Notes under the pieces: generated by a model
Seen by the model: the letters and a program-made list of their open reading frames with translations, nothing else
Database searches by the model: none
What the model was told of the DNA's origin: nothing
NCBI GenBank assembly: GCA_001783805.1
Contig: MFNS01000002.1
Location: forward strand, 1-53,788
Direction of reading: 5' to 3'
Source of the DNA: Candidatus Levybacteria bacterium RIFCSPHIGHO2_01_FULL_40_16
GTDB taxonomy: Bacteria; Patescibacteriota; Microgenomatia; Levybacterales; UBA12049
Length of the DNA stretch: 53,788 nt
Translations under genes and position numbers: made by a program
In this document: positions 25,682 through 53,788 of the stretch, piece by piece
How the letters are laid out: each line of letters opens with the position of its first letter
Position numbering within the stretch: the stretch's first letter is position 1

Positions 25682-25682
25682 A

Positions 25683-26336: not shown

Positions 26337-26340
26337 ATCA

Positions 26341-27489: not shown

Positions 27490-27621
27490 TATATCATGCG
27501 GAAACGCCGCTTAATGCGGTTAAAGCCTTTTTTGCAGATCCGGAATCATTTGTGTAAGCAGATATTAGTTATTGACTGAATAGGCTTATTTATCTATACT
27601 AATTGGACTTTTTGCTCAAAT

Positions 27622-32372: not shown

Positions 32373-32588
32373 ACAGTACTAAACTAATAAACATCTGCTA
32401 GAATGAGTACTTATGTCAAGACAAGGAAGGAAAAGAGCTCGCACATTTGAAGGTGTCAAGAAATTTTGGGAAAGAGAGGCGACAAGAATTATTCATCCTC
32501 TCACCGTCAGCCCAAAGGAACCGCAATTTCCCAACCATAAAGATGTTAAAAAAAATAGGATTATCCCTATTCTTATTGATATCTCCAT

Positions 32589-35287: not shown

Positions 35288-36198
35288 TCTGCCGGATAGA
35301 TCCCCAATCCTAAGTTTTTAAGATATCTTTGCTCGTACTTCGGATCTTTCCAGTCTTCAGGCCAACCGGGAATAGGCCAGAACCTTTCAATCAGCCATTC
35401 CATTTTGTGAATTGCCTTGGGCCATCTGTCATGCATCCAGTAGTCGATATGGAAGATTCTCTGCCGTCTCATGGGCCACTTATTGATAAAGTATCCTCTT
35501 CCCCGTTTACCTTTATATAAATGCGCATACCAAGTCTTCTTATTTACCATGCACTTGCCTCCCGATAACCACGTTTTATTTGCCATTTCTTCACTTTCTA
35601 ATACGAACTCATCCCCGGTTGACGTATTGATATCAAAGCCTCCGATATTATTCATGTGTTTTCTGGTGGTCAGCCAGCATGATCCTTGAAATGCCATTTC
35701 ATCATCTATGAGTAGTTCTTTCCTATCTATGGCTCTTTGATGCCACTTGCCTCCGGTTTTAACCGAATGAAGTTCCTTTACGAACGGGAAGACGAAATAT
35801 TCGTAATCGACTATTGGCCGGTCTTTTTTAATTGACCAGGGATTGGTATCTGCATTTAGACTATATCTTCTGGGAACAACTACCCAATTCTCATTACAGT
35901 CGGCAGTTAATATTTTGTCAAACCCTTCACCGAACATACAATGCCCGTCAGTTTTCATAATAAACTCTCCTTTAGAAGCGGCAATAGCTTGATTCATAGC
36001 GCTTCTAAGTCCGGGCTTACCTACCTTCTGAATGACTCTTAAATTAGGACGCGGAGGAAGTTCCTGCCAATTTTCGTCACAAATTACTACGATTTCAAAA
36101 TCTCCTCTGGCCTTATTGTAAATGTCGTCCACGGTTTTTGCGAGGAACTCTTCATTGCGGGAAGGGATAATTATCGATAGCATATTTTTTGTTTGCAT
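35284..36198 (-). CDS. GT2-family glycosyltransferase
   Basis: LSIIIPSRNE, MKTDGHC and FQGSCW. Confidence 0.88.
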   Translation of the reverse strand: MQTKNMLSIIIPSRNEEFLAKTVDDIYNKARGDFEIVVICDENWQELPPRPNLRVIQKVGKPGLRSAMNQAIAASKGEFIMKTDGHCMFGEGFDKILTADCNENWVVVPRRYSLNADTNPWSIKKDRPIVDYEYFVFPFVKELHSVKTGGKWHQRAIDRKELLIDDEMAFQGSCWLTTRKHMNNIGGFDINTSTGDEFVLESEEMANKTWLSGGKCMVNKKTWYAHLYKGKRGRGYFINKWPMRRQRIFHIDYWMHDRWPKAIHKMEWLIERFWPIPGWPEDWKDPKYEQRYLKNLGLGIYPAE

Positions 36199-36314
36199 AA
36201 TTTTACATTATAACACATTAAATATGGAGCCCTAATTATAGATAAAAAACTTTTTGCGATTTCATCGCCCACTATAAAATTGTTATAGTAAGTGATAGTT
36301 GCATACCCTCTTCC

Positions 36315-36392
36315 AAGGAATCTCCTTTAAAGATGCTCTATCCGAAGCTGCTTGAAAGCTTATCTTTCAAGGTTTCTCCTTTAAGGATACTC
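36315..36392. repeat. REP-like doublet
   Basis: AAGGAATCTCCTTTAAAGATGCTC and AAGGTTTCTCCTTTAAGGATACTC flank a TTGAAAG/CTTTCAA hairpin. A third copy is at 42212-42235. Confidence 0.65.
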
Positions 36393-36394
36393 TT

Positions 36395-38068: not shown

Positions 38069-38973
38069 AGCATGGTTCTTAATCCTTCCTCAAACTTAAC
38101 CCTTGGTTTCCAGCCCAAAAGCTTGCGGGCTTTAGCATTAGATGCCCAGGTAATTCCGGGCTCAATAACTGGAGGTCCATGAATCGGCTTTATTCTTTTC
38201 CCCAAAAGCCCATTAAGTATTTCAACTACCTTATTTACTGAAATTGTTTCTCCGCGACCGATATTAAAAACCTCTCCGCTGATTTTGGACTTTGCTCCCA
38301 AAAGCGTTGCATCTACGACATCTGTTATATAAGTAAAATCCCGGGAATGTTTGCCGTCACCGTTGATAGTCGGCTGTCTATTTTGAGACATAAGCTTGAT
38401 AAATTTGGGAAGAAGAAGAGCGTAAGGACTATTGGGATTCATCCTTGAACCGTAAACATTAAAATAACGGAGCGAAATTGTCGAAAGACCCCAAAGATCT
38501 GAAAACATTTTGCAATATTCCTCGCATTCAAGTTTCTGCAGTGAATAAGGCACTAAGGGATTAGGCCGCATATCCTCAAAAAAAGGCACCATGAGTGGGT
38601 TACCATAAATAGAAGAGCTGGAAGCAAAAACAAATCTTTTGACTTTATATTTTTTGGCCATCAAAAGCAGATTGAGCGTCCCGTCAACATTTACTTTATG
38701 CGTTTCCCACGGATCATCAAGTGATCTTTTAAGACGCGGCAATGCGGCAAGATGAAAGATGACATCCTGTCCTTTAACGAATTTGGAAACGTCATCCAAA
38801 ATCGAAGCTTTAATCTTAATTAGATTTTTGTGTTTCGGCAGATTTTCCCATTTCCCTTCGGATAGATCGTCAATAACAGTTACACGGCTCCCCTCTTTGA
38901 GAAGCCGTTCAACCAAGTGGGAACCAATAAATCCCGCACCACCGGTTACCAAACAATTTTTCAAGTTCTTCAT
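38065..38973 (-). CDS. NAD-dependent epimerase (UDP-hexose/HexNAc 4-epimerase-like)
   Basis: GGAGFIG, SSSSIYG, YSLQK, LRYFNVYG and RDFTY. Confidence 0.92.
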   Translation of the reverse strand: MKNLKNCLVTGGAGFIGSHLVERLLKEGSRVTVIDDLSEGKWENLPKHKNLIKIKASILDDVSKFVKGQDVIFHLAALPRLKRSLDDPWETHKVNVDGTLNLLLMAKKYKVKRFVFASSSSIYGNPLMVPFFEDMRPNPLVPYSLQKLECEEYCKMFSDLWGLSTISLRYFNVYGSRMNPNSPYALLLPKFIKLMSQNRQPTINGDGKHSRDFTYITDVVDATLLGAKSKISGEVFNIGRGETISVNKVVEILNGLLGKRIKPIHGPPVIEPGITWASNAKARKLLGWKPRVKFEEGLRTML

Positions 38974-39731
38974 TTTTGAGTTATCTCTATAAAATCATCC
39001 AGCTTTCTACTGAAGATCTCCCGCATTCCGTTATAGTGTTTTCTAAACTTTGTGTAGTTTAGCTTAACACCATCATCTTTGTAAAGAGATATCCCATTCA
39101 TTCCCGGTTCATAATCTTTCTTAAATCCTTCCATTGGAGAGATCATCACTACCCGGCAGCCGCATAAACGGGCAACTTCGCTTAACGCGGTTACAGGATC
39201 ATAGATGTAAAGCACCTGGCAGTCGTTCAGCATATCTGCCAACTCCTGCTGATCCTGCATTCTCGGAAGTTCAATTGCGTCGGATGGATGCTGATTGGTA
39301 TTCTTTCCTTTTCCTACGTAGTAAAATTTTTTGGTCCGCTTCCCCTTCCGGCTGCAAAATAAATGCATGTCAATAATCGGAAGAAAGAGGTAGTGGCTTT
39401 CCGGAAGATTTTTCAGGTAAAGTCTGGAAAAAGCAAATAGTTTATCCTTTGGATCAAATTTAGTCGGGCCGGGTTTGAAGCTTCGGGTGCCGGGAGTTCC
39501 CTTCCCCATCATTCCGGGCTTCTGTAGGATGTATCTGACCACAGTATTGGCTTCCATGGGATTTCCATGATAAATCTCCGGATAAATTGCCACAAAATCC
39601 GAATCGGGATACTTTGTGTTGACATTGACAATTTGGCCTTTAGCCAAAAGCCAGCCGTAAAGTCCCCACATGACCCGGATTCCGCCGGAGCTAATCTTAA
39701 AGTTGGGAGTAACAACGCTGTATGGCTTCAT
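38970..39731 (-). CDS. Hypothetical glycosyltransferase-like protein
   Basis: SGGIRVM, IYPEI...GNP...VVRYIL, YIYDP and EARLCGC-type motif. Start placed at the ATGA overlap. Confidence 0.5.
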   Translation of the reverse strand: MKPYSVVTPNFKISSGGIRVMWGLYGWLLAKGQIVNVNTKYPDSDFVAIYPEIYHGNPMEANTVVRYILQKPGMMGKGTPGTRSFKPGPTKFDPKDKLFAFSRLYLKNLPESHYLFLPIIDMHLFCSRKGKRTKKFYYVGKGKNTNQHPSDAIELPRMQDQQELADMLNDCQVLYIYDPVTALSEVARLCGCRVVMISPMEGFKKDYEPGMNGISLYKDDGVKLNYTKFRKHYNGMREIFSRKLDDFIEITQK

Positions 39732-40459
39732 CTGATTATGATGCTTTGCCCATAATTGCCGATTTGCTTTAGCCATTCTTTGACTTCGGGGGTAAAAGGC
39801 ATATTTTCAAAATCCAGTTTGGGATAGACTCCGCCTTTAGCATTGTGATAGGCCAGGACCTGTTCTCCCCGGCACATTAATTTGTCATTCTCAATATAAA
39901 ACTCCGATTCGCGGTTTAGCGATTTGCAGCCATAATAATCCTTTTCTCTATCCACGATCTTGAGTTTGAGCTGGGGCATGGCCTTATAGATTACTAAATT
40001 CAGGACGTCATTTTCCCGGCCCTTGTATTTCCTGGCATCCCTATTCATTTCCTGCCATTTGAGCCAAAATTCCTTCTTAGTTGAGGCAATCAGACCTCCC
40101 TGAATATACATTTCTGCGGTTATGTTTTCAACAGTAGAATTTTCATAATCATTATAGTTCCACGGACCGGCTACATCATAGTTAACGTTGTCAAAAATTT
40201 CCATCATTCTGCCCGTAACCACATGGTCAACGTCCATTTTTACAACCAAATCGTAATCCTCAAACAGAAGCTGGGCAAAATATGGGGTAGCATTATACCA
40301 GTTAATTCCTTTTTCCGGAAATAGCTTGTCAACTACGTTCTGTCTCATTACAACCAAATCGATGTCCGGATGGAATCTTTTGAAGCTGTTAATCATGATC
40401 GGAGTCCCAGCCAGAGAATAATGCTTGTCATCAACAGGAGCAAAACATACTTTCTTCAT
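39728..40459 (-). CDS. GT8-like glycosyltransferase
   Basis: VKMDVDH, QGGL, ENDVLN and AYHNAKG. Confidence 0.62.
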   Translation of the reverse strand: MKKVCFAPVDDKHYSLAGTPIMINSFKRFHPDIDLVVMRQNVVDKLFPEKGINWYNATPYFAQLLFEDYDLVVKMDVDHVVTGRMMEIFDNVNYDVAGPWNYNDYENSTVENITAEMYIQGGLIASTKKEFWLKWQEMNRDARKYKGRENDVLNLVIYKAMPQLKLKIVDREKDYYGCKSLNRESEFYIENDKLMCRGEQVLAYHNAKGGVYPKLDFENMPFTPEVKEWLKQIGNYGQSIIIR

Positions 40460-41064
40460 ATTTTTCTCGCCAGAAAATGATCTTTCATCGGCTCCGTGTA
40501 TCGATAGCCCATTTCTTCAACCACATCTTTAACTTCAATTCTTCTATCAGTTGCTTCAACCACCTTGTTTGTGTCGTGATGCAATTCCCCCAGTATCGTA
40601 TATACCCTATCTTTAGGAAAATTCGGGTCGCTTAAGATTTCTCTCTCCAGTCCTTCTACGTCTATTTTTAGGATATCCGCATATTGAATCCTGTTCATAT
40701 CCATAAAATTCCTTAGTGTCATGCTTTGCGTTTCAAATTCACCGTCTCTTCTTATTTGTGAGCTTCCGGCAGCCAGAACCGGATCCTTCCAATACCTTCT
40801 GGGCAACTCATTTCCGGTTATCGCAGTGCAGTAGGTTTTAATTCTAGCTATTTTATTTGTTGCAATTGTCCGATTCAAATTATCAATGATCTCGGGAACC
40901 ATATCGATTGCGTATATTTCTTTTGCCAAAGCGTATAACCAGAAGGAGAAAGTCCCGATATTGCACCCCACGTCAATTACTACCAAATCTTTGAATAAAA
41001 ATGAATATTCATTTCTATTTATTACTTCCCGAACAAATCTGTCGGAATCAGCTTCAATTACCAT
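40456..41064 (-). CDS. FkbM-family methyltransferase
   Basis: VIDVGCNIG and DILKIDVEG.E. Confidence 0.88.
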   Translation of the reverse strand: MVIEADSDRFVREVINRNEYSFLFKDLVVIDVGCNIGTFSFWLYALAKEIYAIDMVPEIIDNLNRTIATNKIARIKTYCTAITGNELPRRYWKDPVLAAGSSQIRRDGEFETQSMTLRNFMDMNRIQYADILKIDVEGLEREILSDPNFPKDRVYTILGELHHDTNKVVEATDRRIEVKDVVEEMGYRYTEPMKDHFLARKI

Positions 41065-41157
41065 ACGGAAAAAGTAAACTGCTTAGAAATTCCGGCACAA
41101 TTTTCATGACAGTAGTTTATAGTTTAATCTAATGAACGTCAAGAGGCATGATTAGAG

Positions 41158-41796
41158 CTAAAAGACATTGTTATAGTAGTCATATTTGAGATTTGTCCGG
41201 TTCATCCAGTTGCCGGGAAAGTTGATCTGCCCTTTTGTGTAACGGAAAGAACCCTTATTCGCGTCTTCTCTCATGATAAACCAGGCGCCTTGGTGATTGG
41301 TAAATCCATAAAAAGCGATGATGCTGTCGTCAATCTCGGTAATATTGTATCCGACCAATGGCTGATCTTGTTCAAGATTGCTACTATCGGTTGCGGCAGT
41401 TTCCATATTTCTTTCCGATGGTGCCGGAGAACTTTTGGGAAATAGGTTTTCGAATTTTTTATTAAAAATTGAGAAGAGGAAAACGGCAAGTCCTGCACCG
41501 CCAATCAGTTTAAGAAATGCCCGCCTGTCAATATCGGCAATGCCTAGATTTTCTCCTATTGCCGCCCCGATTCCTGCCACCGACTTCATCGAAGGATGGC
41601 TCGTGGCCACCGATTCCCTAGAATATGCCGCCCGAGTCCGGCGCGGAAAGACTTTAAAGAAGAAAAGAATAAGCAATGGATAAAGAAGAATTGCGACGGC
41701 CAGCTGGAGATAGGTTTTGGCAGTCACAAACGTTGCTCCCACCACCAGGCCGGCGACTATAAAGATAAAACCGGTTAGAACCTTGCCTTTATTCAT
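41158..41796 (-). CDS. Hypothetical membrane protein with an internal RR motif
   Basis: Two N-terminal TM helices, DRRAFLKLIGG plus a TM helix, and an aromatic-rich C-terminal domain. Confidence 0.7.
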   Translation of the reverse strand: MNKGKVLTGFIFIVAGLVVGATFVTAKTYLQLAVAILLYPLLILFFFKVFPRRTRAAYSRESVATSHPSMKSVAGIGAAIGENLGIADIDRRAFLKLIGGAGLAVFLFSIFNKKFENLFPKSSPAPSERNMETAATDSSNLEQDQPLVGYNITEIDDSIIAFYGFTNHQGAWFIMREDANKGSFRYTKGQINFPGNWMNRTNLKYDYYNNVF

Positions 41797-42880
41797 TTAT
41801 CTCCTCCCTAACCTCTACATATGTTGCCGATATAAAGCCTGACTCGGTAGCTAATTTGACCTCATACCACTTTGAATCAGCAGAAACAAATTCGAAAATG
41901 TCGCCATCTTTAGCCTGTCCGATTATTTCCGAATTGGTGGTCGATTTTTGGCGGATGTTCACACTTTCCGCCCCATCACTAACTTTAACCGTTACGATCA
42001 TTTTGGGTTTTACCTCTTCTGTTGTTGAAAGAACTGCGGGAGCAATAGAAGGATTGAAATCATTGGCTGTGGAAACCATAACGTTTCTTATTCCGAAGGT
42101 AAACAGCAACAAAAATACTACAATTGTCGCCAGAAGTTCAGGCATTCTTTGCAGGGGCTTCAGAGAGGATTGTGCAGCTGTTTCCGGAAGATGATTTTCA
42201 ACATTTCTTGCAGGATCTCTCCTTTCAAGATGCTCAATTTCACTCTCAAAAGTGATATCCTTAAGAAGTTCCTTTACCTTTTGGTCGGGTTCGTATTTTT
42301 CCACAAAATCTTTGTATCCGGCCGTCCCCTTGCCAAAAAAAGACAGAACAATTTTCGGCTTAACCCAGGAAGTTTCTCTTGCACCCAAATATTCGCTATA
42401 GGATGAATGGCCGCCGGCATAATGGAAAAAACGAGTCAGGTGCGGCAGACGGGGTCCGCTCTTGATCTGAACTGACTTATATGGGCCTTCGAATAGAGCT
42501 CCTGTGCGCTGGTATTTCTTATTAAAATACATTGAATATCTGGTACACAAAGATCTGATAAAGCTCTCCAACGAGCCTTTGGCCACCTGATGCAAGAGTA
42601 AATGGAAGTGGCCCGGCATTAACATGTACGCGATGAGCTCAACTTTGTTGAAATAATTCTTAGGCTGGTGAGGAGTGCCTCGGAAAACGCGACCATTCAC
42701 CGTAAAAGACTTTTTGATGCTTTCGGGATCCTGGGGAGGAGTCAAATAACCCTCTAGGAAGTCAAGGAAGACCGTGTAATCCGCTTCGTCGTTGAAAATG
42801 ACCCTGTTCTCTACCCCTTTGTTGTAAATGTGGGAATAAATTCCTTCTTTCCGTTCCCTAAAGAGATTTTTGGCAGGCAT
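41789..42880 (-). CDS. RAYT/IS200-like HUH transposase domain fused to a TM helix and an SH3-type domain; probably catalytically dead
   Basis: HIYNKG, AYMLMPGHFHLL, YFNKKYQRTGALF and SSY..Y; TM LLATIVVFLLLFTFGI; VNIRQKSTTNSEIIG...WYEV...GFIS. Confidence 0.8.
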   Translation of the reverse strand: MPAKNLFRERKEGIYSHIYNKGVENRVIFNDEADYTVFLDFLEGYLTPPQDPESIKKSFTVNGRVFRGTPHQPKNYFNKVELIAYMLMPGHFHLLLHQVAKGSLESFIRSLCTRYSMYFNKKYQRTGALFEGPYKSVQIKSGPRLPHLTRFFHYAGGHSSYSEYLGARETSWVKPKIVLSFFGKGTAGYKDFVEKYEPDQKVKELLKDITFESEIEHLERRDPARNVENHLPETAAQSSLKPLQRMPELLATIVVFLLLFTFGIRNVMVSTANDFNPSIAPAVLSTTEEVKPKMIVTVKVSDGAESVNIRQKSTTNSEIIGQAKDGDIFEFVSADSKWYEVKLATESGFISATYVEVREEINE

Positions 42881-43047
42881 AATATTACAATACCTTGTAA
42901 GAAGATACTTTGCAAGTACCAATTTGAAGCTAAATCTTCCCGAAGATTAAGAAGAAGATGAATCCTTATAAGTATTTTTTGATATCAACCGCCCCAATAG
43001 ACTGCTAAACGGAGCTGAAGAAAAAGAATGTGCTATAATGAGCCGGA

Positions 43048-44097
43048 ATGAACACAACCAATGTCAAAAAATACCGCCCTATCCCGCTCTTTTATCCGTT
43101 TGTCAGCGAAGGCATGCGGCGAGCGGCTTATGATGCCTTGAAGGATAAAATTATTACCCAGGGCCAAAAAGTAATTGAGCTTGAAAAGCGCTTAAATTCA
43201 GCTCTTGGTACAAAAAACCTTCTGACTGTAAATTCCGGCAGTTCGGCTCTGGAATTAGCTTATCATCTTTTGGACTTAAAGCCCGGCGACGAGGTAATCG
43301 CTCCGGTATTCACCTGCACTATCACCAATCTTCCTCTCTTAAGAAGAGGAGTCAAAATTGTCTTTGCCGATGTGAAGGATAATCTTCTACCGGATTGGAG
43401 CGATATCGAAAGTAAAATTACTAAAAAAACCAAAGCCATAGCCGATGCTCATCTGTTCGGACAGCTCAATGAAACAAGAAATTTAGGAATACCGGTGGTT
43501 GGCGACGCAGCTCAATATTTGGGCAAAACTTTTGGTGAAAGATTTACCGCCTATTCTTTCCAGGCAGTCAAAATTATGACCACGGTAGATGGCGGAGCTT
43601 TGGTTTGTGAACGAAAACAGGATTACCGGCGGGCAAAGCTGCTTCGCTGGTACGGAATTGACCGGGAAACGGGCAAAGAAAGCTACGACGTGGACATCAA
43701 AGAAGCCGGATACAAATACCACATGAACGATGTCACGGCTGCGATTGGCATTGCCGGTTTAAAAATATTGGATAAGCTGAAAAAAGAACGTGCTACGCTC
43801 CAAAACCACTACAAGGAATGTTTAAGAGATATTCCCGGCCTTCAAGTTATTGGCGGCTCTCCATTTCTTATTCATGTTTTCAATCGGAAAAAACTTATGC
43901 ATAAACTGGCCATGGCAGGAATTGAAACAGGCCTTGGACATCGCCGCAATGATATGTATACGGTCTTCGGGGGAAGAAGACAAAATCTACCCAATATGAA
44001 CCGCTTGGAAGAAACTTATCTCCTGCTCCCCTGCCATAACCACATGACGGCAAATGACGTAGACTATATCTGCGAATCAATTAGAAAAAATATATGA
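43048..44097 (+). CDS. DegT/DnrJ-family aminotransferase
   Basis: NSGSSAL, GDAAQ, SFQAVKIMTTVDGG and GYKYHM. Confidence 0.92.
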   Translation: MNTTNVKKYRPIPLFYPFVSEGMRRAAYDALKDKIITQGQKVIELEKRLNSALGTKNLLTVNSGSSALELAYHLLDLKPGDEVIAPVFTCTITNLPLLRRGVKIVFADVKDNLLPDWSDIESKITKKTKAIADAHLFGQLNETRNLGIPVVGDAAQYLGKTFGERFTAYSFQAVKIMTTVDGGALVCERKQDYRRAKLLRWYGIDRETGKESYDVDIKEAGYKYHMNDVTAAIGIAGLKILDKLKKERATLQNHYKECLRDIPGLQVIGGSPFLIHVFNRKKLMHKLAMAGIETGLGHRRNDMYTVFGGRRQNLPNMNRLEETYLLLPCHNHMTANDVDYICESIRKNI

Positions 44098-44175
44098 TCC
44101 CGTTAGAAGCAAATTGCAACATAAACATTTTAGAATTCAAAATATGAGAAAAGCGATCGCAGCTTCTAACAGGAT
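44097..44175. mobile_element. MITE-like element, CCCGTTAGA/TCTAACGGG family
   Basis: ATCCCGTTAGAAGC...GCTTCTAACAGGAT (13/14 inverted repeat), with ATGA at both ends. Confidence 0.65.
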
Positions 44176-44767
44176 GATTAATTTCTCCTACAGAAAAGAT
44201 TGGCTAAATCCCCCCTGGTATTCTTCGTATGAAAAAAATAACTACGGAGATTTTTTTTACGCTCTAATGCGCGTTTATCAACCCAAAAAAGTAGTTGAAC
44301 TGGGAACTAAAGCCGGATACAGTGCTTTTCACATGGCCAGAGGACTTACGGCCAACGGCAAAGGGAAGCTAGATTGCTATGATCTTTGGGAAAACTATAA
44401 ATTTAATTCTGTCCCCCGGTCTCTGGCTGAAAAGAACTTAAAAAAATACAAAAAAATTGTCAGCTTAAGCTTACGGAATGCAATCGGTGTCGATAAGAGA
44501 TACAAAGAGATAGACATTTTACACGTGGATTTGAGCAACGAGGGCGGAATCTTGGAGAAGATAATCCCCTATTGGATAGACAAAGTCCGTCAAGTGATTA
44601 TTCTTGAAGGCGGTTCAAAAGAACATGACAAACTTCCCTGGATTAAAAAGTTTAAAAAAATCCCGGTTGAGAAATGGCTGGCAGATTTTATCCGCAAACA
44701 CCCAAACATTGAACATGTTACGATTGAACCATTCCCGTCAGTAACTATTCTTAGAAAAAATGAATAA
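44174..44767 (+). CDS. Class I SAM methyltransferase
   Basis: VVELGTKAGYS and DILHVD. The start is placed at the ATG after the repeat element, not at 44114. Confidence 0.75.
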   Translation: MINFSYRKDWLNPPWYSSYEKNNYGDFFYALMRVYQPKKVVELGTKAGYSAFHMARGLTANGKGKLDCYDLWENYKFNSVPRSLAEKNLKKYKKIVSLSLRNAIGVDKRYKEIDILHVDLSNEGGILEKIIPYWIDKVRQVIILEGGSKEHDKLPWIKKFKKIPVEKWLADFIRKHPNIEHVTIEPFPSVTILRKNE

Positions 44768-45818
44768 TAACTACAATCTCCCTGAGGAGCTAGAAGCGAT
44801 GCTTCTTGATTTCTATATGATGCCCGCCAAAAAAAGATATGTATCCGATGATTGGGTTAATAAAATTAACAATGGACGTGTTGCTAAATTGGCAGCAACC
44901 GGATATGAAAATTTCGGGCATACCTTGGCCATCGATTACTGCGCTTGGCTTGAAGATCCATCTATGCCAGGGGTTTCAAAATTACTCCAATCAAAGATTG
45001 ATTATTTATGCCGTAATCTTGGCTCAGAAGAAATCGCAAAAGCTAAAAAAGTAGCAAAAAAAATCCCGCCATCGCCGTATGCGGCTAAAGACTGTAATTT
45101 TATTACCCTGCTTCTTTGGCAATATGTAAAAAATCAAGGATTACAAAAAGAATCAAAAATGCTCAGTGAATCAAGCGAGGGCGACCCGACCGCAATTAAT
45201 TTTGAAGGCAAGCTAATTTCGCAAGGTCTGGGATATTCACTTCTGGAATACGATACAATACGTAAAAATACCGACATTAACTCAATCAAGTCCATAATGT
45301 CAATCGGCCCCGGATATGGGAGAACAGCCTATGTCTTTCTGCGTTTACTTAAGGTACAAAAATACATACTGATTGACATACCGCCCGCACTTTACGTAGC
45401 TCAAAGATATCTGGAAAACTTACTCCCCGAAAAGAAAATATTCAAATATAGAAAGTTCACATCTTTTAGGGAAATCGAAGAAGAGTTTGAGAAGGCGGAA
45501 ATCGTATTTCTTATGCCCTGGCAAATTGAACTGTTGCCGGAAAAATGTATCGATTTAATTACTGCCATTCTCTCATTTGATGATATGGACATAAGAACAA
45601 TAAAAAGATATCTTAAGCATATTAACACTCTAGGTAAACGTTATTTCTATCTAAAAACCTGGAAGGAATGGACAAACGAAAATAAAATAATAAAATGGAA
45701 GGAAAGTTGTCCGATACCAAAGAGTTGGAAAACCCTGGTATATCGCAGTTGCAGGGCGCAAGCCGATTACTCTGAAAAATTGTACAAACTGCCGAGACAC
45801 AGTAAATTAGAGCATTAA
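44760..45818 (+). CDS. Putative sugar O-methyltransferase
   Basis: SIGPGYGRTA, YILIDIPPALYVAQRYL and YLKHI. Confidence 0.8.
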   Translation: MNNNYNLPEELEAMLLDFYMMPAKKRYVSDDWVNKINNGRVAKLAATGYENFGHTLAIDYCAWLEDPSMPGVSKLLQSKIDYLCRNLGSEEIAKAKKVAKKIPPSPYAAKDCNFITLLLWQYVKNQGLQKESKMLSESSEGDPTAINFEGKLISQGLGYSLLEYDTIRKNTDINSIKSIMSIGPGYGRTAYVFLRLLKVQKYILIDIPPALYVAQRYLENLLPEKKIFKYRKFTSFREIEEEFEKAEIVFLMPWQIELLPEKCIDLITAILSFDDMDIRTIKRYLKHINTLGKRYFYLKTWKEWTNENKIIKWKESCPIPKSWKTLVYRSCRAQADYSEKLYKLPRHSKLEH

Positions 45819-45836
45819 CATGGCTAAAGCAATAAA

Positions 45837-46538
45837 ATGATCACTGTACATACGGTAGCTTATAATGAAAGCTTACTTATCCAGTTCATGATCGATCATT
45901 ACCGTAAGAGATTTCCGGGCTGTCGGATTATCGTGTACGATAATATGAGCACTGATAATACCGTTAAAATCGCTCTGGCCAATAATTGCGACGTTATCCC
46001 CTTTGATACGAACAATGAATTTCAAGACCGCCGGCATATGGAAATCAAAAATAATTGCTGGAAAGATGCAAAAACCGATTGGGTTTTAATGTGCGATCTG
46101 GATGAGTTGCTGGATATAAATGAAGTTGAGTTAAAAACGGAAGAAGGTTTCGGAACGTCAATGATCAGATGCGAGTTTTACGACATGATTAATATGGAAG
46201 ATAATTTGGATATTGCCGGCATGAAGTATGGGGAAAAAAGCCCACTACCTGGTAAGTTTTTGCTTTTTAACAAAAAGTTAATCAACGAAATAAATTACAC
46301 GCCAGGCGCTCACGGATGTAATCCAATGGGCACTGTTATATACAGCAACAAAGTATACAAGGCATATCATTACAATGCCATAAATGAGAATGTAACAATT
46401 GAGAAATTTAAGGACTACAGTGCGAGATTAAGTCCGGACAATATCAAGCATGGTTGGAGCCTTTTTGTTTTGTCTACGCCCGAACAAATCCGTGAGGAAT
46501 ATGTTGCCGGACGAAGCAAAGCAATAAAAGTACGCTGA
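45837..46538 (+). CDS. GT2-like glycosyltransferase
   Basis: VAYNE, YDNMSTD and MCDLDE; related to the N-terminal domain of 24344-25681. Confidence 0.8.
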   Translation: MITVHTVAYNESLLIQFMIDHYRKRFPGCRIIVYDNMSTDNTVKIALANNCDVIPFDTNNEFQDRRHMEIKNNCWKDAKTDWVLMCDLDELLDINEVELKTEEGFGTSMIRCEFYDMINMEDNLDIAGMKYGEKSPLPGKFLLFNKKLINEINYTPGAHGCNPMGTVIYSNKVYKAYHYNAINENVTIEKFKDYSARLSPDNIKHGWSLFVLSTPEQIREEYVAGRSKAIKVR

Positions 46539-47122
46539 TGAAAATTTTAATCGGAACACCAATTCACCAAGTTAAGGATTATTCCATGGAAAGGTGGCTT
46601 AAAAATGTCGCCAGACTCCAGAAGAAAACTCCGGCTGATTTATTTTTAATTGATAACTCCTCCGGACTTGACTATGTAGAAACAGTTAAGGGTTATTGCC
46701 AGAAATACGGCGTCAAAAATTACAAAATAAAACATTTGAATCTCGATCAAAAATTAAGCTCCGGCAGACGGATAAATATAGCGCAGGAAGCATTAAGACG
46801 AATAGCTATCGGCAAAGATTATGACGCTTGGTTTTCTTGGGAATGCGATCAAATCATACCAACCAATGCCCTGGATAAACTTATCAAGATAATGAAGTTA
46901 GGAAATTTCATGATGGTTGTACATAATTCTTGGGACAGGAAAATTCCCGCTGTCTTTAATTTCGATATGGGCTGCACCTTAATCACAAAAAAGTGCTTAA
47001 AATTAAAAAGAATTACCGACCTCTGGACAGAGGACTGGTTGGAGACACAAACTTTACAAAATGGAGGCAGTTTTGCCAATGTTCATGGAGCAATATGTCC
47101 GATTTATCATTTAAGAAAATAG
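46538..47122 (+). CDS. GT-A-like glycosyltransferase, KILIGTP family, copy 1
   Basis: MKILIGTPIH..KDY, DNS, SWECD and PIYHL. Confidence 0.7.
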   Translation: MKILIGTPIHQVKDYSMERWLKNVARLQKKTPADLFLIDNSSGLDYVETVKGYCQKYGVKNYKIKHLNLDQKLSSGRRINIAQEALRRIAIGKDYDAWFSWECDQIIPTNALDKLIKIMKLGNFMMVVHNSWDRKIPAVFNFDMGCTLITKKCLKLKRITDLWTEDWLETQTLQNGGSFANVHGAICPIYHLRK

Positions 47123-47125
47123 CCT

Positions 47126-47926
47126 ATGCAAATTGGAATAACAACAATACAACGTGACCGGGCACCTTGGATTAAGGAATGGATTGTCTTTCATTATCTG
47201 GTCGGGTTTAGAAAATTTTATATTTATCTACATAAGTGTTCCGATGATACCGAAAAGATTTTGAACAAACTAAAGCAGAAACTTGACATTGAAATTATGA
47301 TTGTGAACCCAAAATTAAAAACACCGCAACTTAAGAGCTACGAAGATGCATATACCAAATTCGGAGATGAAGTTGACTGGATGGCCTTCATTGATGGAGA
47401 TGAATTCCTCTTCCCCACAAAGGATAAATCAATGGAAATTGCGCTCAAAAAGTACTCGGACAAAAAACTTTCCGCTTTGGGCGTTTATTGGTCGTGTTTT
47501 GGCTCTAGCGGACACATAAAAGAACCGAAGGGTTTAATTATTGAAAATTATAAATACCGGGCAGAAGATAATTATTCAAACAACCGCCATATCAAAAGCA
47601 TTGTCCGCGGCGGACTTAAAAAGTTTACCCAGCCACCTGACAATCCCCATCTTTTCCAAACTCCGCAAGGCACTTTTGATGAAAATTTGCGGCCAATTAC
47701 TCAAGGCTGGACGGATTATAAACCCACTTACGAAAACTTCCGGATTAATCATTACATCACCCAGAGCCGCTCATTTTTCTTGAATTTTAAATCTAAAGTC
47801 AATCCCCCGGACGGCGCCTCAATGCGGGATGAAGCCTTCTGGAAAGAACACGATATAAACGATGTCCTAGATAATTCAATGGATAAGTTTATTAAACCTC
47901 TGAAAAAAATCTTAAAATCACTATAA
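47126..47926 (+). CDS. GT92/DUF23-like glycosyltransferase
   Basis: WIKEWIVFH, AFIDGDEFL, KSIV and INHYITQS. Confidence 0.82.
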   Translation: MQIGITTIQRDRAPWIKEWIVFHYLVGFRKFYIYLHKCSDDTEKILNKLKQKLDIEIMIVNPKLKTPQLKSYEDAYTKFGDEVDWMAFIDGDEFLFPTKDKSMEIALKKYSDKKLSALGVYWSCFGSSGHIKEPKGLIIENYKYRAEDNYSNNRHIKSIVRGGLKKFTQPPDNPHLFQTPQGTFDENLRPITQGWTDYKPTYENFRINHYITQSRSFFLNFKSKVNPPDGASMRDEAFWKEHDINDVLDNSMDKFIKPLKKILKSL

Positions 47927-48064
47927 TCAATCTTTTGACTGTATATTTTTGATTGCTTGACTATCGCCAACTTTATGCTTAAAATTACTTACAAAATTAA
48001 TGTCGCTAATTTATCCAAAACATCATCATGTCCGCGGCGGACGTGAATTTGCTAATATAGAGAT

Positions 48065-48751
48065 ATGATTCAAGTTAAGAACCCGGAGCCAAAAGAAAAC
48101 CTAATCTTCACCGCAAAAAAAACTGCCCCCTCCGGCAGATTCAAGGTTTTAATCGGCACGCCGATTCATGAGGTTAAAGACTATTGCATGGAAAAATGGA
48201 TTGCGAATGTGGCCAAATTACAGAAGAAAACTCCTGCAGATTTATTACTGGTAGACAACTCCCCTGACCTTAGTTATATAGAAAAAGTCAAAGGTTATTG
48301 CAAAAAATATAAAATTAAAAATTACAAGATTAAACATTTGGAAATCAATCAAAACCAGCCTGTGCCTGAAAGAATCGGCCGTTCTAGGGAAATAGTCAGG
48401 CAGGAAATTTTGGCCAATGATTATGGCGCCTGGTTTAGCTGGGAATCCGATCAAATTATTCCACCCAATGCTTTGGAAAAGTTAACCAAAATTATGGAGG
48501 CGGGAAACTATATGATGATTCATCCCAACACCTGGTCCAGAGTCTTTACGGGAGAACCGAACGTGAATTTCGGCGTCTGCCTAATTAAAAGGTGGTGTCT
48601 GGAAAAGTACGGCTTCTTACTTGAATTACCCGATATGCCCGACTGCTACGCTATGGTAGAGGCCTGGTTCAAGAAGAAAGTTCTCGCAGGCGGAGGTAAT
48701 TACATTGAAGTTTACGGACTGATTAAACCTATTTATCATTTAAACGCATGA
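48065..48751 (+). CDS. KILIGTP-family glycosyltransferase, copy 2
   Basis: KVLIGTPIHEVKDY, SWESD and PIYHL. Confidence 0.7.
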   Translation: MIQVKNPEPKENLIFTAKKTAPSGRFKVLIGTPIHEVKDYCMEKWIANVAKLQKKTPADLLLVDNSPDLSYIEKVKGYCKKYKIKNYKIKHLEINQNQPVPERIGRSREIVRQEILANDYGAWFSWESDQIIPPNALEKLTKIMEAGNYMMIHPNTWSRVFTGEPNVNFGVCLIKRWCLEKYGFLLELPDMPDCYAMVEAWFKKKVLAGGGNYIEVYGLIKPIYHLNA

Positions 48752-48821
48752 ATCCCTTTAGAAATAAAAAATCAGAGATTTTTGCCGACACGCCAAAGGC
48801 GAGTCGGATTTCTAACGGGAT
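48752..48821. mobile_element. MITE-like element, CCCGTTAGA/TCTAACGGG family
   Basis: ATCCCTTTAGAAAT...ATTTCTAACGGGAT (13/14), ATGA at both ends, internal hairpins. Confidence 0.7.
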
Positions 48822-49434
48822 GAGGGTCCTAATTGGCACACCGATACATGTCAGTAAAGATTATTCCATGGAAAGATGGCTGAAAAATGTAGCGGCAATG
48901 GAATATCCGGCCGATTTGCTGTTGGTTGATAACTCCCCCGGACTTGATTACGTAGAAAAAGTTAAGGGTTATTGCAAGAAATATAAAATAATGAATTATA
49001 CGCTGAAACACCTAGAGCTTCCCTCGGAACAAAAAGGAGATGAAAGGATAGCCCGTTCGCGGGAAATAATCCGGAAAGAAATTCTTTCTCACGACTATGA
49101 TTGCTGGTTTGACTGGGAGTCCGATCAGATTATACCGGCGGATGCCCTAGATAAGCTAGTTAAAATCATGGAAGCGGGAAACTGCATGATGATTGTCCAC
49201 AATAATGGAATTAGACAAATCCCGGGCGCAACCGGCTTTGACCTCGGCATTGCTTTAGTTAAAAGGGAGTGTCTGAAAAAATACAGTTTCATTCTTGAAT
49301 TCGGGACCGATCCTGATATGCCCGATAATTGGGATGCCGGCGACCAGTGGTATAAAAAACGGTTGCTCCGGGACGGAGGCAGCTATATTGACGCAATCGG
49401 AGTATTTGGTTTTATGTTTCATCTGGACAAATAA
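48820..49434 (+). CDS. KILIGTP-family glycosyltransferase, copy 3
   Basis: MRVLIGTPIH and DWESD. The ORF-track N-terminal extension (from 48748) is repeat-derived. Confidence 0.7.
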   Translation: MRVLIGTPIHVSKDYSMERWLKNVAAMEYPADLLLVDNSPGLDYVEKVKGYCKKYKIMNYTLKHLELPSEQKGDERIARSREIIRKEILSHDYDCWFDWESDQIIPADALDKLVKIMEAGNCMMIVHNNGIRQIPGATGFDLGIALVKRECLKKYSFILEFGTDPDMPDNWDAGDQWYKKRLLRDGGSYIDAIGVFGFMFHLDK

Positions 49435-49638
49435 CCATAAAAATTAACATAATTCATGCGGGTGAATTTTGATTATGGTATAGTTTTATCTAACAGGATG
49501 TTTGGAGAAATACATCCGGCTGCCCCAATGTTGTTTTTAAGACAAACCGATATTAATAAAGTATTATTAGTTTAGACAATTAAAAGTAAAGGAGAAAATT
49601 AAAGGTCTTTGGATTGTGGCCTTTTTTGACGTGATAAA

Positions 49639-50928
49639 ATGAAAATATTAATTGCGACGCCTGTTCACAAAATAAAAGATTATTGCATGGAGCGGTGGCT
49701 CAAGAATGTAGCCGAATTGCAGCCTGCCTATTCCGCTGACCTTTTGCTGGTTGATAATTCGCTTAACCTTGACTTTATGGAGAAGGTTAAGGGCTATTGC
49801 GGGAAATACAAAATCAAAAACTACAAAATTAAACATCTTGATCTTCCCCCAAACATAGAAAGGTATGAAAGAATGGCCCGCTCCCGGGAAATAATTAGGA
49901 ATGAGTTTCTCTCCAAGAATTATGATGCTTGGTTTAGTTGGGAGTCCGACATAATAATACCGACTGACACGCTAGGCAAACTGGTTAAATTCATGAAGAC
50001 GGGAGATTTTATGGTTATTGATCACAATTGTTGGATGAGGGGTTTTCCCGGCGCGTACTGCACCGACTTCGGCATTGCTTTAGTTGCCAGAAATGCCTTG
50101 GAAAAATACAGCTTCATTCTAGAGTTCGGAACCGATCCTGAAATGCCTAAGACTTATGAACCCAGCGAAGCTTGGTTTAAAGCGCGGGTTTTAAGAGACG
50201 GAGGCAACTGCATTGAGGTTGATAATTTAGTTACTCCGATAGCTCATTTGAATCCGATTGTCACCCAAAAAATGAAAGTCTTGATTGCGGCGCCAATTCA
50301 TGAATCCAAAGATTATTCTATGGACAGATGGCTGGAAAATGTCTCCCGGCAGGAACACCCTGCCGATTTGTTAATGGTTGATAATTCCGTCGGCACAGAA
50401 TATATGAGAAAGGTAGATATGTATTGCGCCAAACATGGAATTAACCCCGTTAGAAATCTCGGACAGAGTCCTATTTCTAACGGGGTAACCAACTACAAAA
50501 TCATTCATTTGGAATTGCCAATAGAGCAAGGGAAACATGAAAGAGTCGCCCGTTCCAGAGAAATAATCAGGCAATATTTTCTGAAACACGATTATGATGC
50601 TTGGTTTGTCTGGGAATGCGACCAGATTATTCCGGTCAATACTTTGGATAACTTAATTAAAATCATGCAACAGGAAAATTACATGATGGTTAATCCCAAT
50701 AAATGGGCCCGGGAAGACCCAACTATCCCCAATACCGATTTTGGAGTCTCTCTAATCAAAAGAGAGGCCTTGGGAAAACATAATTTCATTCTTGAATTCA
50801 ACGATCCTGAAACACCTGACACTTGGGAAACAGGAGAGAGCTGGTTCAAATCACAGGTTCTTAAAAACGGAGGCAGTTACATTGACGTTTATGGAATTAT
50901 TGACCCAATCTATCACTTAAATCAATGA
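49639..50928 (+). CDS. Tandem two-domain KILIGTP-family glycosyltransferase (copies 4 and 5)
   Basis: MKILIATPVH...PIAHL, then MKVLIAAPIH...PIYHL. Confidence 0.75.
   Translation: MKILIATPVHKIKDYCMERWLKNVAELQPAYSADLLLVDNSLNLDFMEKVKGYCGKYKIKNYKIKHLDLPPNIERYERMARSREIIRNEFLSKNYDAWFSWESDIIIPTDTLGKLVKFMKTGDFMVIDHNCWMRGFPGAYCTDFGIALVARNALEKYSFILEFGTDPEMPKTYEPSEAWFKARVLRDGGNCIEVDNLVTPIAHLNPIVTQKMKVLIAAPIHESKDYSMDRWLENVSRQEHPADLLMVDNSVGTEYMRKVDMYCAKHGINPVRNLGQSPISNGVTNYKIIHLELPIEQGKHERVARSREIIRQYFLKHDYDAWFVWECDQIIPVNTLDNLIKIMQQENYMMVNPNKWAREDPTIPNTDFGVSLIKREALGKHNFILEFNDPETPDTWETGESWFKSQVLKNGGSYIDVYGIIDPIYHLNQ
50444..50486. mobile_element. In-frame MITE-like insertion, CCCGTTAGA family
   Basis: Perfect 14-bp inverted repeat ACCCCGTTAGAAAT/ATTTCTAACGGGGT; adds INPVRNLGQSPISNG, which is absent from the paralogous domains. 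Confidence 0.75.
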
Positions 50929-51293
50929 ATCACGTTAGAGATTCAAGCCTTATCCCGTTAGAAATTCGCGGGATAAAAGATACAAATATGATTAACAATG
51001 ACAACAACAAGAGAGGAGATTTCTAACGGGACTTATGAAATATGTTTATGTTATACAAAGTTTAAAAAGCAACTATTGGTATACTGGCTTAACTAATGAT
51101 TTGCGGAAACGTTTTAATCAACACAATGAAGGAAAATCAACTTGGACAAAACCACGAGGACCGTGGGAATTAATATATTATGAAGCTTGTCTTGATGGGG
51201 ATGATGCGAAAGCGAGAGAAAAATATTTAAAAAGTGGTATGGGCAAACGTTATCTGAAAAATAGATTAAAACGTTTTCTATCTCTAACGTGAT
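50929..51293. mobile_element. GIY-YIG-encoding element with 14-bp terminal inverted repeats
   Basis: ATCACGTTAGAGAT (50929-50942)/ATCTCTAACGTGAT (51280-51293); a second inner pair at 50952-50965/51019-51032. Confidence 0.7.
51035..51292 (+). CDS. Small GIY-YIG nuclease
   Basis: YVYVI...YTGLTNDL..R..QH...TK..PW.LIYYE...A..RE..LK. Confidence 0.93.
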   Translation: MKYVYVIQSLKSNYWYTGLTNDLRKRFNQHNEGKSTWTKPRGPWELIYYEACLDGDDAKAREKYLKSGMGKRYLKNRLKRFLSLT

Positions 51294-51906
51294 GAAAATT
51301 TTAATGGGAACACCCGTACACGAGTGCAAAGATTACGCCATGGAAAGATGGCTTGAATCGGTATCGAAATTGGATTATCCTTTTGACCTATTGCTAGTGG
51401 ACAATTCCGAAAACCCCGGATATGTTAAAAAATTGCATGCGTATTGTAAAAAATACGAGATAACCAATTATAAATTGCTGCATGTTGACGTTGACAAAGA
51501 TACGATACTCGATGAGAGATTGGCCAAATCAAGAGAATTGATAAGGAGAGAGGTTTTGGACAAAAATTATGGAGCTTGGTTCTCTCTTGAATGCGATGTT
51601 ATCGCCCCGCCGGATGCGCTTTCCAAGCTGGTTAATTTAATTGAGGATAATTGGATGGTTAGCCATGCTTATCCTACCAGAGAAATTCCCAACGAAACCC
51701 ATGCGCAGCTTGGCATTTCCTTAATTAACCGGAAAGCGCTGACAGCACTTGGATTCATCAATGGATACGGCTACGTCAATCCCCTTTCGCCCAAAAGTTG
51801 GTACGGCTCTGACGTTTGGTTCATCAGGCGGATAGACACGGGCAATGCAGGCATACACATTAATGTTGATGGAATTATCAAGCCAATTTACCACTTAAGT
51901 CAGTAA
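51292..51906 (+). CDS. KILIGTP-family glycosyltransferase, copy 6
   Basis: MKILMGTPVH, SLECD and PIYHL. Confidence 0.7.
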   Translation: MKILMGTPVHECKDYAMERWLESVSKLDYPFDLLLVDNSENPGYVKKLHAYCKKYEITNYKLLHVDVDKDTILDERLAKSRELIRREVLDKNYGAWFSLECDVIAPPDALSKLVNLIEDNWMVSHAYPTREIPNETHAQLGISLINRKALTALGFINGYGYVNPLSPKSWYGSDVWFIRRIDTGNAGIHINVDGIIKPIYHLSQ

Positions 51907-51917: not shown

Positions 51918-53788
51918 ATGCTTAAATTTTATTACAGTAATTCCACCAACACAGCCACCCCAGGAAGCTGGCATGGAACTTGGAACGACAATGCTTCGGC
52001 TGTCACCAAATTGCTCGATACTGCTGCCAGCGGTACGGGTCCAAATGAACTCCCAATTACTGAAAACCAAAATTCTGCGGATTACAACGTTGCCATGGGA
52101 AGGTGGATTTCCGAAGCGCTGCCTACGGGAACCGTCTTTACCGCAGGCTCAACCACTTGGCAGTCTGTTGTGGGTGTGGGGGAAGATAACGCTGCTGCTG
52201 ATGAATTTGATAGATTCTACATTTGGATTTGGACGGGAAATGGCACCGGCGATTCATCTGCAGCTAATCTCGTTGCCAACGCAAATAACGCTACCGAATG
52301 GACAACGATTGTAGCCGGAAGACAGATGCTTAATTCCACTACCAATGCCATAGCCGATTCATACACTACTATTGCAGGAGACAGGCTAGTCGTAGAATTT
52401 GGTTATCATTCCACAAGTCAAGATACCACTACTTATACAGGCACGATGTGGTACGGGGGTGTGGGTGGAGATTTGGGCGTAAACGGCAACGAAACTAGCC
52501 TATCGGCATGGATACAATTTGATGGTGTTCCATCAGCCAGCCCATCTATATCGCCTTCTGCCAGTGCATCTATATCGCCATCCGCCAGTGAGTCCATCAG
52601 CCCCAGCGCTTCTCTATCGGTTAGTCCGTCAATCTCCCCTTCCGCCAGCGAGTCTATTTCGCCATCCGCCAGCGAGTCGATTTCGCCATCCGCCAGTATT
52701 TCTGCCAGTCCATCAATCAGTCCTTCCGCAAGTGAGTCGATTTCGCCGTCGGCCAGCGAATCAATATCGCCTTCGGCCAGTGAGTCGATATCGCCATCCG
52801 CCAGTGCGTCTATTTCGCCGTCTGCCAGTGAATCGATTTCACCGTCCGCCAGCGAGTCCATTTCACCGTCTGCCAGTGAATCGATTTCACCGTCGGCTAG
52901 TGAGTCTATAAGTCCTTCAGCCAGTGAGTCAATTTCACCATCCGCCAGCGTGTCAATTTCGCCGTCTGCCAGCGAGTCAATTTCACCTTCGGCCAGCGAA
53001 TCAATTTCACCATCTGCCAGTCCGTCAGCAGGTTCAGAATCTCCATCTGCCAGTGAATCAATTTCGCCGTCAGCCAGTGAGTCTATTTCTCCTTCCGCCA
53101 GTATTTCTGCCAGTCCATCAATCAGCCCTTCCGCAAGTGAGTCGATTTCGCCTTCTGCCAGCGCTTCAATTTCACCATCCGCCAGTGAGTCGATATCGCC
53201 TTCGGCCAGCGCTTCAATTTCGCCGTCTGCCAGCGAATCGATTTCACCGTCCGCCAGTATTTCAGTTAGCCCATCGATCTCTCCGTCTGCCAGCGAATCG
53301 ATTAGTCCGTCTGCAAGTGCATCCATCTCTCCATCTGCTAGCGAGTCGATTAGTCCTTCTGCCAGTGAGTCAAGGTCACCTTCAATCAGTCCGTCAGCCA
53401 GTGAATCAATATCTCCATCCGCTAGTGCTTCCATCTCCCCTTCAGCCAGCGAGTCCATTTCACCGTCTGCCAGTGAGTCCATAAGTCCCAGCGCTTCTCT
53501 ATCAGTCAGTCCATCAATTTCGCCTTCTGCTAGCGCCTCCATCTCTCCATCTGCAAGTGAGTCGATATCTCCATCAGCAAGTGTGTCTATTTCTCCGTCT
53601 GCCAGCGCATCGATTTCGCCGTCAGCCAGTATTTCTGTCAGTCCGTCAATCAGTCCGTCGGCCAGCGCTTCAATTTCACCTTCAGCCAGCGAGTCGATCA
53701 GTCCTTCCGCCAGCGAATCAATTTCACCTTCCGCCAGCGAGTCAATCTCTCCATCCGCCAGCGCTTCAATTTCACCTTCTGCAAGCGA
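51918..53788 (+). CDS. Serine-rich repeat protein, partial (more than 620 aa, open at the window end; missed by the ORF track)
   Basis: My translation from ATG 51918 has no stop: about 204 aa of unique Trp/Thr/Gly-rich domain, then (SASESISP)n from about 52530. Confidence 0.9.

Follow-up and report, generated by a model that had tools for sequence, protein, structure and literature searches.

Why does a glycan island on the chromosome of a groundwater bacterium end in a gene for a long serine-rich repeat protein, and what could that protein be? The locus lies in positions 1 to 53,788 of contig MFNS01000002.1 (GenBank assembly GCA_001783805.1; this 53,788-nt stretch is hereafter called the window) of Candidatus Levybacteria bacterium RIFCSPHIGHO2_01_FULL_40_16, a member of the Patescibacteria or candidate phyla radiation (CPR). 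The initial annotation had described an open frame running to the window edge with at least 419 aa of SASESISP-type octapeptides, about half of them Ser, and had proposed a glycosylated stalk presenting a head of roughly 200 aa, in the manner of the streptococcal and staphylococcal serine-rich repeat adhesins, with an origin from a phage fibre as an alternative. The reading that we favor, with a probability of roughly one half, is that the gene (hereafter the fibre gene) encodes a chromosomal, selectively maintained fibre-like protein made from phage tail-fibre modules, and that the glycosyltransferases encoded beside it probably use its Ser-X stalk as their acceptor.

A complete gene coded on the plus strand

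The fibre gene starts at ATG 51918 on the plus strand, and its frame is open to the end of the window; an in-frame TAA at 51912-51914, two codons before the ATG, rules out any upstream extension. A metagenome scan with the head and three relatives recovered a contig of 5,667 bp (L052) whose head is 100% identical to that of the window and whose complete open reading frame (ORF) encodes 1,391 aa. A 73-kb contig identical to the window (L058), reached via a neighbouring window protein, carries a fibre ORF of 1,393 aa, such that the frame in the window is the 5' 45% of the complete gene. The complete protein consists of the head, a Ser-X array of 1,109 aa, and a tail of 80 aa. Three independent assemblies (L058, L059, and L060) agree with one another over up to 1,199 aa, and the window agrees with them at 1,797 of 1,871 nt; the last ~74 nt deviate, which looks like an assembly-end artefact inside the repeat. 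L052 and L058 share an identical prefix of 461 aa, followed by in-frame unit indels in the array (118 gap columns) that reflect either repeat-number polymorphism between populations or strains, or assembly differences.

The composition described in the initial annotation is borne out, with 209 Ser among the 419 aa of the repeat in the window. Split behind every Pro, this part falls into 46 octapeptides and 10 tetrapeptides, with 27 occurrences of SASESISP and 10 of SASASISP within the window. Tandem Repeats Finder reports a 24-nt period with super-periods of 48, 72, 84, and 156 nt, and a degenerate pattern for a 10-aa repeat peptide has 25 matches in the window versus 0 expected from shuffles. 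In the full array, 547 of 1,109 aa are Ser, and strict Ser-X alternation holds for 98.6%; SS dipeptides are absent, every eighth position is Pro, and there are 61 acidic against 10 basic residues. A protein search with 126 aa of the repeat returned eight short, unrelated proteins with SxSPS linkers, two degenerate DNA patterns for the SASESISP unit had no match in IMG/VR, and a promoter and terminator scan around the fibre gene gave background-level signals.

The synonymous codons are scrambled between units, as first noted: the 52 canonical SASESISP units of the complete gene are written in 48 distinct DNA versions. Codon positions 1 and 2 are invariant across the 52 units, except for a TCN/AGY switch at the fourth Ser, and third positions have only 40% pairwise identity. 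The preference for AGY at the Ser after Ala also holds (49 of 61 cases in the window, and 28 of 29 for Ser before Glu), and the third position of the unit is AGY in all 52 canonical units.

The array can also be read on the opposite strand. Gene callers run on L058 to L060 place a 989-aa minus-strand gene of DGEIDSLA-type repeats over it and leave the sense gene uncalled; since public calls take the antisense ORF, the sense gene is unannotated and its exact protein is absent from the protein collection. That the antisense ORF is the true gene, or that the array is non-coding, has next to no chance of being right, despite the callers' choice and the length of this frame, which stays open for 369 aa within the window and for 979-989 aa over the whole array. 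Translated antisense, the 52 identical sense units give 11 different peptides. The sense frame joins a confidently folded head and a conserved C-terminal motif in-frame, and in relatives the head, a Ser linker, and a further domain share one frame. Invariant sense units, scrambled third positions, variable antisense peptides, and domains in frame thus establish the plus strand as coding, and the amino-acid sequence of the repeat is under strong purifying selection. As standard callers choose the antisense ORF, proteins of this kind are systematically missed and are likely under-represented in protein databases.

Phage-tail homology at both ends

The head has no match in Pfam, PHROG, or NCBIfam, and a PDB sequence profile search with its alignment gave chance-level matches only. 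AlphaFold2, using a 34-sequence alignment, predicts a confident all-beta jelly roll (pLDDT 90.2), in agreement with the head of about 200 aa that had been anticipated. An exhaustive HMMER search with the head collected 570 clusters at E ≤ 1e-3, of which 160 reach E ≤ 1e-10, with E values of 1e-53 to 1e-11 for the 150 representatives listed. The domain typically begins at about residue 3 (MATRLYL.N..APYTPAT.RGAWD) and sometimes occurs in two to four tandem copies.

The best fold matches to the head in BFVD are proteins of uncultured Caudovirales (TMq 0.75-0.77, E ~1e-13), and many further BFVD matches are the N-termini of proteins built like tail fibres and spikes, annotated with collagen triple-helix repeats, S74 intramolecular-chaperone domains, or pectin-lyase folds. 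A TMq of 0.5 is reached by a single match in the PDB, the C-terminal jelly roll of cocaine esterase. Head homologues are encoded 2-8 genes past PhageMin_Tail tape-measure genes. For one of them (P0019), on a contig of 61 kb, the distance is eight genes and the tape-measure gene encodes 2,018 aa; for another (P0166), on a contig of 73 kb, it is three genes and the tape-measure gene encodes 1,964 aa. A single peptide pattern retrieved 47 IMG/VR loci with the head domain, and in 34 of the 47 the start of the ORF is at most 10 residues away. In 50,697 annotated phage genomes, tblastn found no match to the head, and its phage link is based on BFVD and on phage contigs from metagenomes. Signal or membrane segments are present at the N-terminus of a minority of head-family members, which means that the family also includes secreted proteins of cells. 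Among named relatives the nearest is P0002 (70% identity), from a metagenome-assembled genome (MAG) of Candidatus Saccharibacteria, and a genome-contig scan found only a 1,090-bp contig of a Saccharibacteria MAG. On a 61-kb phage-like contig (L001, 13085-14505), a 1,003-aa head homologue is immediately followed by an S-adenosylmethionine (SAM) methyltransferase gene and an MptE/Maf-like gene (PF01973), neighbours that hint that phage members of the head family may be modified as well.

The other end of the protein is related to annotated phage proteins. Its last ~55 residues (SWNTAGRPERVKVGTIGFNFRTNNLECWNGTAWLTL) match phrog_1325 (E = 1.5e-8) and ten other PHROGs through the pattern RP..G.(G/R)(F/Y)N...E.W.G..W, the neck motif of phrog_1325 and its relatives; the Pfam family DUF7360 scores E = 0.04, below its threshold. 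By tblastn the tail matches 261 phage records (172 from Streptomyces phages and 71 from Synechococcus phages) with E values down to 6e-7, and the genes named among them are annotated as minor tail protein, tail protein, or tail fiber, with several others hypothetical. In Streptomyces phage Emaanora the match is gp25, the penultimate tail gene before the endolysin, in which the motif occupies approximately residues 150-190 between an N-terminal domain and a His-rich repetitive shaft. The motif thus precedes the shaft in gp25, whereas it is C-terminal in the fibre protein. With homology at both ends, the origin from a phage fibre that had been offered as an alternative gains support. A free-standing paralogue of the tail motif (49% identity) is encoded beyond the window by a 69-aa ORF, about 70 nt past the fibre stop (L052, 4395-4604, plus strand), followed in the same orientation by two tatA genes and tatC.

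Between the two ends, the length of the Ser-X-Pro region ranges across relatives from ~35 to >160 aa, linking the head to other domains. At L054 the head is followed by a linker of ~100 aa of SVSPS type and a non-repeat domain matching phrog_18503 (E = 1.4e-9); at L055 it is followed by a linker of ~35 aa and another domain, and at L053 by more than 160 aa of SASVSP repeats up to the contig end. An ORF at 5908-9390 of a 113-kb IMG/VR contig (L048) has the same head and then ~900 aa of SASESASAS-type repeats; its neighbours carry little PHROG signal, and the contig is viral by IMG/VR classification alone. The relatives show the repeat in the role of a variable stalk.

Adjacent glycosyltransferases and competing readings of the fibre

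The fibre gene is chromosomal. The first 22 kb of the window are ordinary chromosome, with topA, dprA, PBP2, mreC, mreB, def, and fmt, up to a border of tRNA genes and rpmG at which the glycan island begins (Table 1). On the 3' side of the fibre gene follow, in order, the 69-aa ORF, tatA, tatA, tatC, a PAP2 phosphatase gene, an NTP-transferase gene, nusG, rplK, and rplA, the last three at 20014-21290 of L058. No capsid, portal, terminase, tape-measure, integrase, or lysis gene was found in the 52 kb upstream or 5 kb downstream. The rpmG-secE-nusG-rplKA cluster is widely conserved, and therefore it looks as if the island and the fibre gene had been inserted beside tRNA genes, into a conserved cluster whose genes are normally contiguous.

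The fibre gene stands, as first described, at the end of a glycosylation island. The island encodes GT2 glycosyltransferases, two DegT aminotransferases, dehydratases and epimerases, an FdtA-like isomerase, a formyltransferase, a C-methyltransferase, many SAM methyltransferases, a LicD-like protein, and a sugar O-methyltransferase of NanM type. Of its 32 ORFs, 30 have no membrane-like segment, and no flippase, polymerase, ABC permease, or initiating transferase was found in it. A soluble island of this kind fits cytoplasmic protein glycosylation better than lipid-linked polysaccharide assembly, without proving it. The only ORF of the island with several (three) membrane-like segments is at 41158-41796 on the minus strand, beside a 377-aa ORF (41789-42922, minus strand) that combines a fragment of an IS200-like Y1 transposase with a C-terminal SH3_3 domain.

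Upstream of the fibre gene, five ORFs hold six copies of a previously unnamed family of ~205 aa, 38-59% identical to one another. DNS and E-x-D motifs and a C-terminal His are invariant in the family alignment. The family has no NCBIfam match, only chance-level matches in a PDB-sequence profile search, and a sub-threshold Pfam GT2 match. The AlphaFold2 model of the copy next to the fibre gene has a moderate pLDDT of 73.5; all 50 of its 50 best PDB fold matches are GT-A enzymes, TarS, SpsA, K4CP, COLGALT1, WrtF, TarP, and RmlT among them, at a TMq of only 0.41-0.59, and we refer to the family as GT-A-like. A GT-A-like gene is directly upstream of the fibre homologue in six of six CPR loci with upstream sequence (the window/L058, L004, L053, L054, L055, and L056, with heads 46-100% identical to that of the window), and the family adjoins a head homologue in 0 of 50 phage-type loci. 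At L004 the stop codon of the GT-A-like gene overlaps the fibre ATG, and at L054 orthologues of the GT2 and GT92 genes are kept in order. The linkage of glycosyltransferases to the fibre is thus stronger than first seen and, with no multi-spanning proteins for lipid-linked export, suggests that the initial annotation was right to call the protein the likely substrate of the island. An 85-aa protein with a GIY-YIG nuclease domain (51035-51292, plus strand, E = 2.1e-18) is encoded between GT-A-like paralogues and is possibly the remnant of a homing endonuclease.

In the reading that we favor, the nucleotide-sugar pathway of the island would feed the six GT-A-like copies, the GT2, the GT92, and the sugar O-methyltransferase. 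These enzymes would O-glycosylate the exposed serines of the repeat in the cytoplasm, as is the case for serine-rich repeat adhesins, staphylococcal Ser-Asp repeat proteins, and flagellins. The resulting glycosylated fibre would be extended, stiff, and negatively charged, and each of its ends would bear a folded module. We infer its glycosylation, its exposure at the surface, and a role in attachment, as well as its export and location, for which the downstream tatA/tatC genes are the sole export context. Cell-surface building and host attachment in CPR bacteria are largely obscure beyond type IV pili, and the literature yielded no description of serine-rich or tail-fibre-like proteins in Saccharibacteria or other CPR bacteria; the fibre offers a concrete candidate, probably glycosylated. 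If the reading is correct, serine-rich repeat glycoproteins extend beyond the Firmicutes and the accessory Sec paradigm, and a new small GT-A family has undergone tandem expansion beside its likely substrate.

Several points weigh against this reading. Glycosylation of the fibre is argued from synteny and analogy, and the GT-A model on which the proposed transferases depend is only of moderate quality. The sequence offers no signal for surface display: the complete protein on L058 has no signal peptide and no membrane segment, consistent with the absence of an obvious N-terminal signal noted in the initial annotation (mean Kyte-Doolittle hydropathy of the first 25 residues -1.05, a hydrophilic N-terminus; no 19-residue window of the whole protein above 0.93). 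It also has no LP.TG motif and no hydrophobic C-terminus, and neither an RR.F pattern nor a twin-arginine signal. The initial annotation had looked to the downstream sequence for an anchor, accessory Sec genes, or phage genes, and had made its proposal depend on an export or anchor context; the frame ends without an anchor, neither of the other two was found in the 5 kb downstream, and what context there is consists of tatA/tatC next to a protein without a twin-arginine signal. Soluble glycosyltransferases can also make wall glycopolymers on lipid carriers with transporters encoded elsewhere (a Wzy_C/TPR protein is encoded at 14851-17202), and the phage-fibre homology could instead mean membership of a virion-like particle. 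We considered the fibre protein and the product of the downstream 69-aa ORF as Tat substrates and rejected this, as they lack a twin-arginine signal.

A first competing explanation sees the Ser-X-Pro region as a linker, flexible or extended and free of sugars, comparable to the Ser/Pro-rich linkers of modular extracellular enzymes; the island would build an unrelated cell-wall glycopolymer, and the two would be adjacent only through a shared envelope function. Short versions of the repeat (35-100 aa) lie between domains in relatives, similar SxSPS linkers occur in unrelated small metagenomic proteins, the teichoic-acid glycosylating enzymes TarS, TarP, and RmlT are among the best fold matches of the GT-A-like family, and the island has a LicD-like gene. 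We nevertheless regard it as unlikely, because a GT-A-like gene is directly upstream at all six loci, with translational overlap at L004, because the island has none of the genes for transport, polymerization, or initiation listed above, and because a 1,109-aa array kept identical in protein with its third positions randomised goes beyond what a spacer needs. A different explanation accepts glycosylation by the island and makes the fibre a structural component of a phage, a satellite, or a phage-derived particle such as a tailocin, the rest of which is encoded elsewhere or by a helper. Some actinobacteriophages reportedly glycosylate their virions, virion proteins normally have no signal peptide, both ends of the protein are homologous to phage tail proteins, and the same architecture is present on the IMG/VR contig L048; the phage homologue on L001 followed by methyltransferase and MptE/Maf-like genes, and the GIY-YIG gene among the glycosyltransferases, would also suit it. 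We think this quite improbable given that none of the phage genes named above was found in the 52 kb upstream or 5 kb downstream, and given the housekeeping flanks (tRNA genes and rpmG upstream; tatA, tatC, nusG, and rplKA downstream), the glycosyltransferases, never tail genes, that precede the gene at all six CPR loci, and the missing C-terminal receptor-binding or chaperone domain that is usual for such fibres.

That the protein is a canonical serine-rich repeat protein (SRRP) of the GspB, Fap1, or PsrP type, exported by accessory Sec and anchored by sortase, is scarcely credible and is already contradicted by the complete gene. Its Ser-X dipeptide repeat is compositionally very like SRRP repeats, and its gene is in a glycosylation island. 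However, SRRPs have an extended N-terminal signal for accessory Sec, two Ser-rich regions flanking a binding region, an LPxTG motif, and a locus with secA2, secY2, asp1-3, gtfA, and gtfB (PMC7661464). The fibre protein departs from that description in every structural and locus feature: it has a single repeat region of 1,109 aa and a head from residue 1, and it lacks an extended signal sequence, the SRR1-BR-SRR2 layout, and LPXTG. The Pfam matches for essentially all window ORFs of at least 80 aa and for the 5 kb downstream include no secA2, secY2, asp, or gtfA/B gene. Its head, moreover, is homologous to phage proteins and not to SRRP binding regions. The comparison with GspB, Fap1, and PsrP made in the initial annotation therefore fails as a matter of family membership.

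By analogy, the fibre may still work like an SRRP, as a cytoplasmically O-glycosylated stalk, without being one. With GspB, Fap1, PsrP, and Srr1/2 it shares a very long Ser-X repeat of ~50% Ser, a folded non-repeat domain, an island with several glycosyltransferases, and a likely cytoplasmic logic of glycosylation; it differs in the Pro at every eighth position, the phage-tail-like head and tail, the GT2, GT92, and new GT-A enzymes, and the CPR host, as well as in the missing signal, anchor, and accessory genes. The staphylococcal Ser-Asp repeat proteins ClfA and SdrC-E, which are glycosylated by SdgA/SdgB, also combine strict alternation of Ser with another residue in a stalk and adjacent dedicated glycosyltransferases, but their repeat is Ser-Asp, they carry LPXTG anchors as well as Sec signals, and phage-type modules are absent from them.

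Phage tail fibres and minor tail proteins (Emaanora gp25, the BFVD Caudovirales proteins, and the L048 ORF) share the head (E to 1e-53, TMq 0.77), the C-terminal motif (E to 6e-7), and a plan of head, long repetitive shaft, and distal module, with a Ser-rich shaft of ~900 aa in L048. Unlike them, the fibre gene is outside a tail module, without phage neighbours and without a receptor-binding or chaperone domain; a position downstream of a tape-measure gene, as P0019 and P0166 have, is found neither here nor at the five related CPR loci, where glycosyltransferase genes lie upstream. Finally, in Maf-type flagellin and virion glycosylation islands, too, soluble sugar enzymes and transferases are clustered with a structural protein that has no signal and undergoes modification on Ser/Thr ahead of its export or assembly, but here there are no flagellar or virion assembly genes, and the acceptor would be a repeat of 1,100 aa instead of surface loops or C-terminal tails. 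Mycobacteriophages that encode glycosyltransferases, an example of this group, are mentioned in PMC11256854.

A bolder version of the reading that we favor is that a CPR epibiont domesticated phage tail-fibre modules into a cell-encoded, densely O-glycosylated fibre over 1,000 residues long with which it contacts or recognises its host bacterium. The sugars would be added by new GT-A enzymes that expanded specifically in this lineage, and export, with no signal peptide, would take an undescribed route that may be coupled to the tatA/tatC genes via the 69-aa paralogue. As a whole, we consider this version a long shot.

Other features of the window

Table 1. Fibre gene segments, glycosyltransferase genes, and island borders, in window positions unless stated otherwise
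Feature	Position	Strand	Remarks
tRNA-Thr/Tyr/Thr/Trp cluster and rpmG	22813..23580	+	Upstream border of the island
Glycan island	23580..51906	.	28 kb, closed by the fibre gene
Putative sugar O-methyltransferase (NanM type)	44760..45818	+	TIGR04371, E = 6.9e-37
GT2 (Glyco_tranf_2_4) glycosyltransferase	45837..46538	+	Orthologue with 68% identity in L054
GT-A-like paralogue	46538..47122	+	BLASTP against paralogues
GT92/GT2_4 glycosyltransferase	47126..47926	+	Orthologue with 73% identity at the same position in L054
Two GT-A-like paralogues	48065-48751 and 48748-49434	+	BLASTP against paralogues, alignment
Two fused GT-A-like copies	49639..50928	+	BLASTP against paralogues, both halves 40-59% identity; family alignment
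GT-A-like glycosyltransferase	51289..51906	+	Directly 5' of the fibre gene; weak GT2 match, E = 0.0038
Head domain, aa 1-204	51918..52529	+	Non-repeat, predicted all-beta jelly roll, unnamed family
Ser-X repeat region, first 419 aa (aa 205-623)	52530..53788 (codons to 53786)	+	SASESISP-type octapeptides, cut by the window end
Antisense ORF, DGEIDSLA-type	52433..53542; L058 12795-15764	-	By-product of the repeat codon structure; strand annotated publicly

The Wzy_C protein mentioned above (783 aa, plus strand) has about 10 membrane-like segments, a Wzy_C domain of the O-antigen ligase/PglL type, and C-terminal TPRs, and could be an oligosaccharyltransferase or ligase for an extracytoplasmic route of glycosylation. 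Amid the housekeeping genes there is a gene of the 23S rRNA intervening-sequence protein family (PF05635, E = 6.4e-19) at 18972-19376 on the plus strand. Further along, 20178-22363 (plus strand) encodes a 525-aa protein without a family match and with one N-terminal hydrophobic segment, followed by a 197-aa protein with a cohesin domain (E = 1e-12); the pair may be surface-associated.

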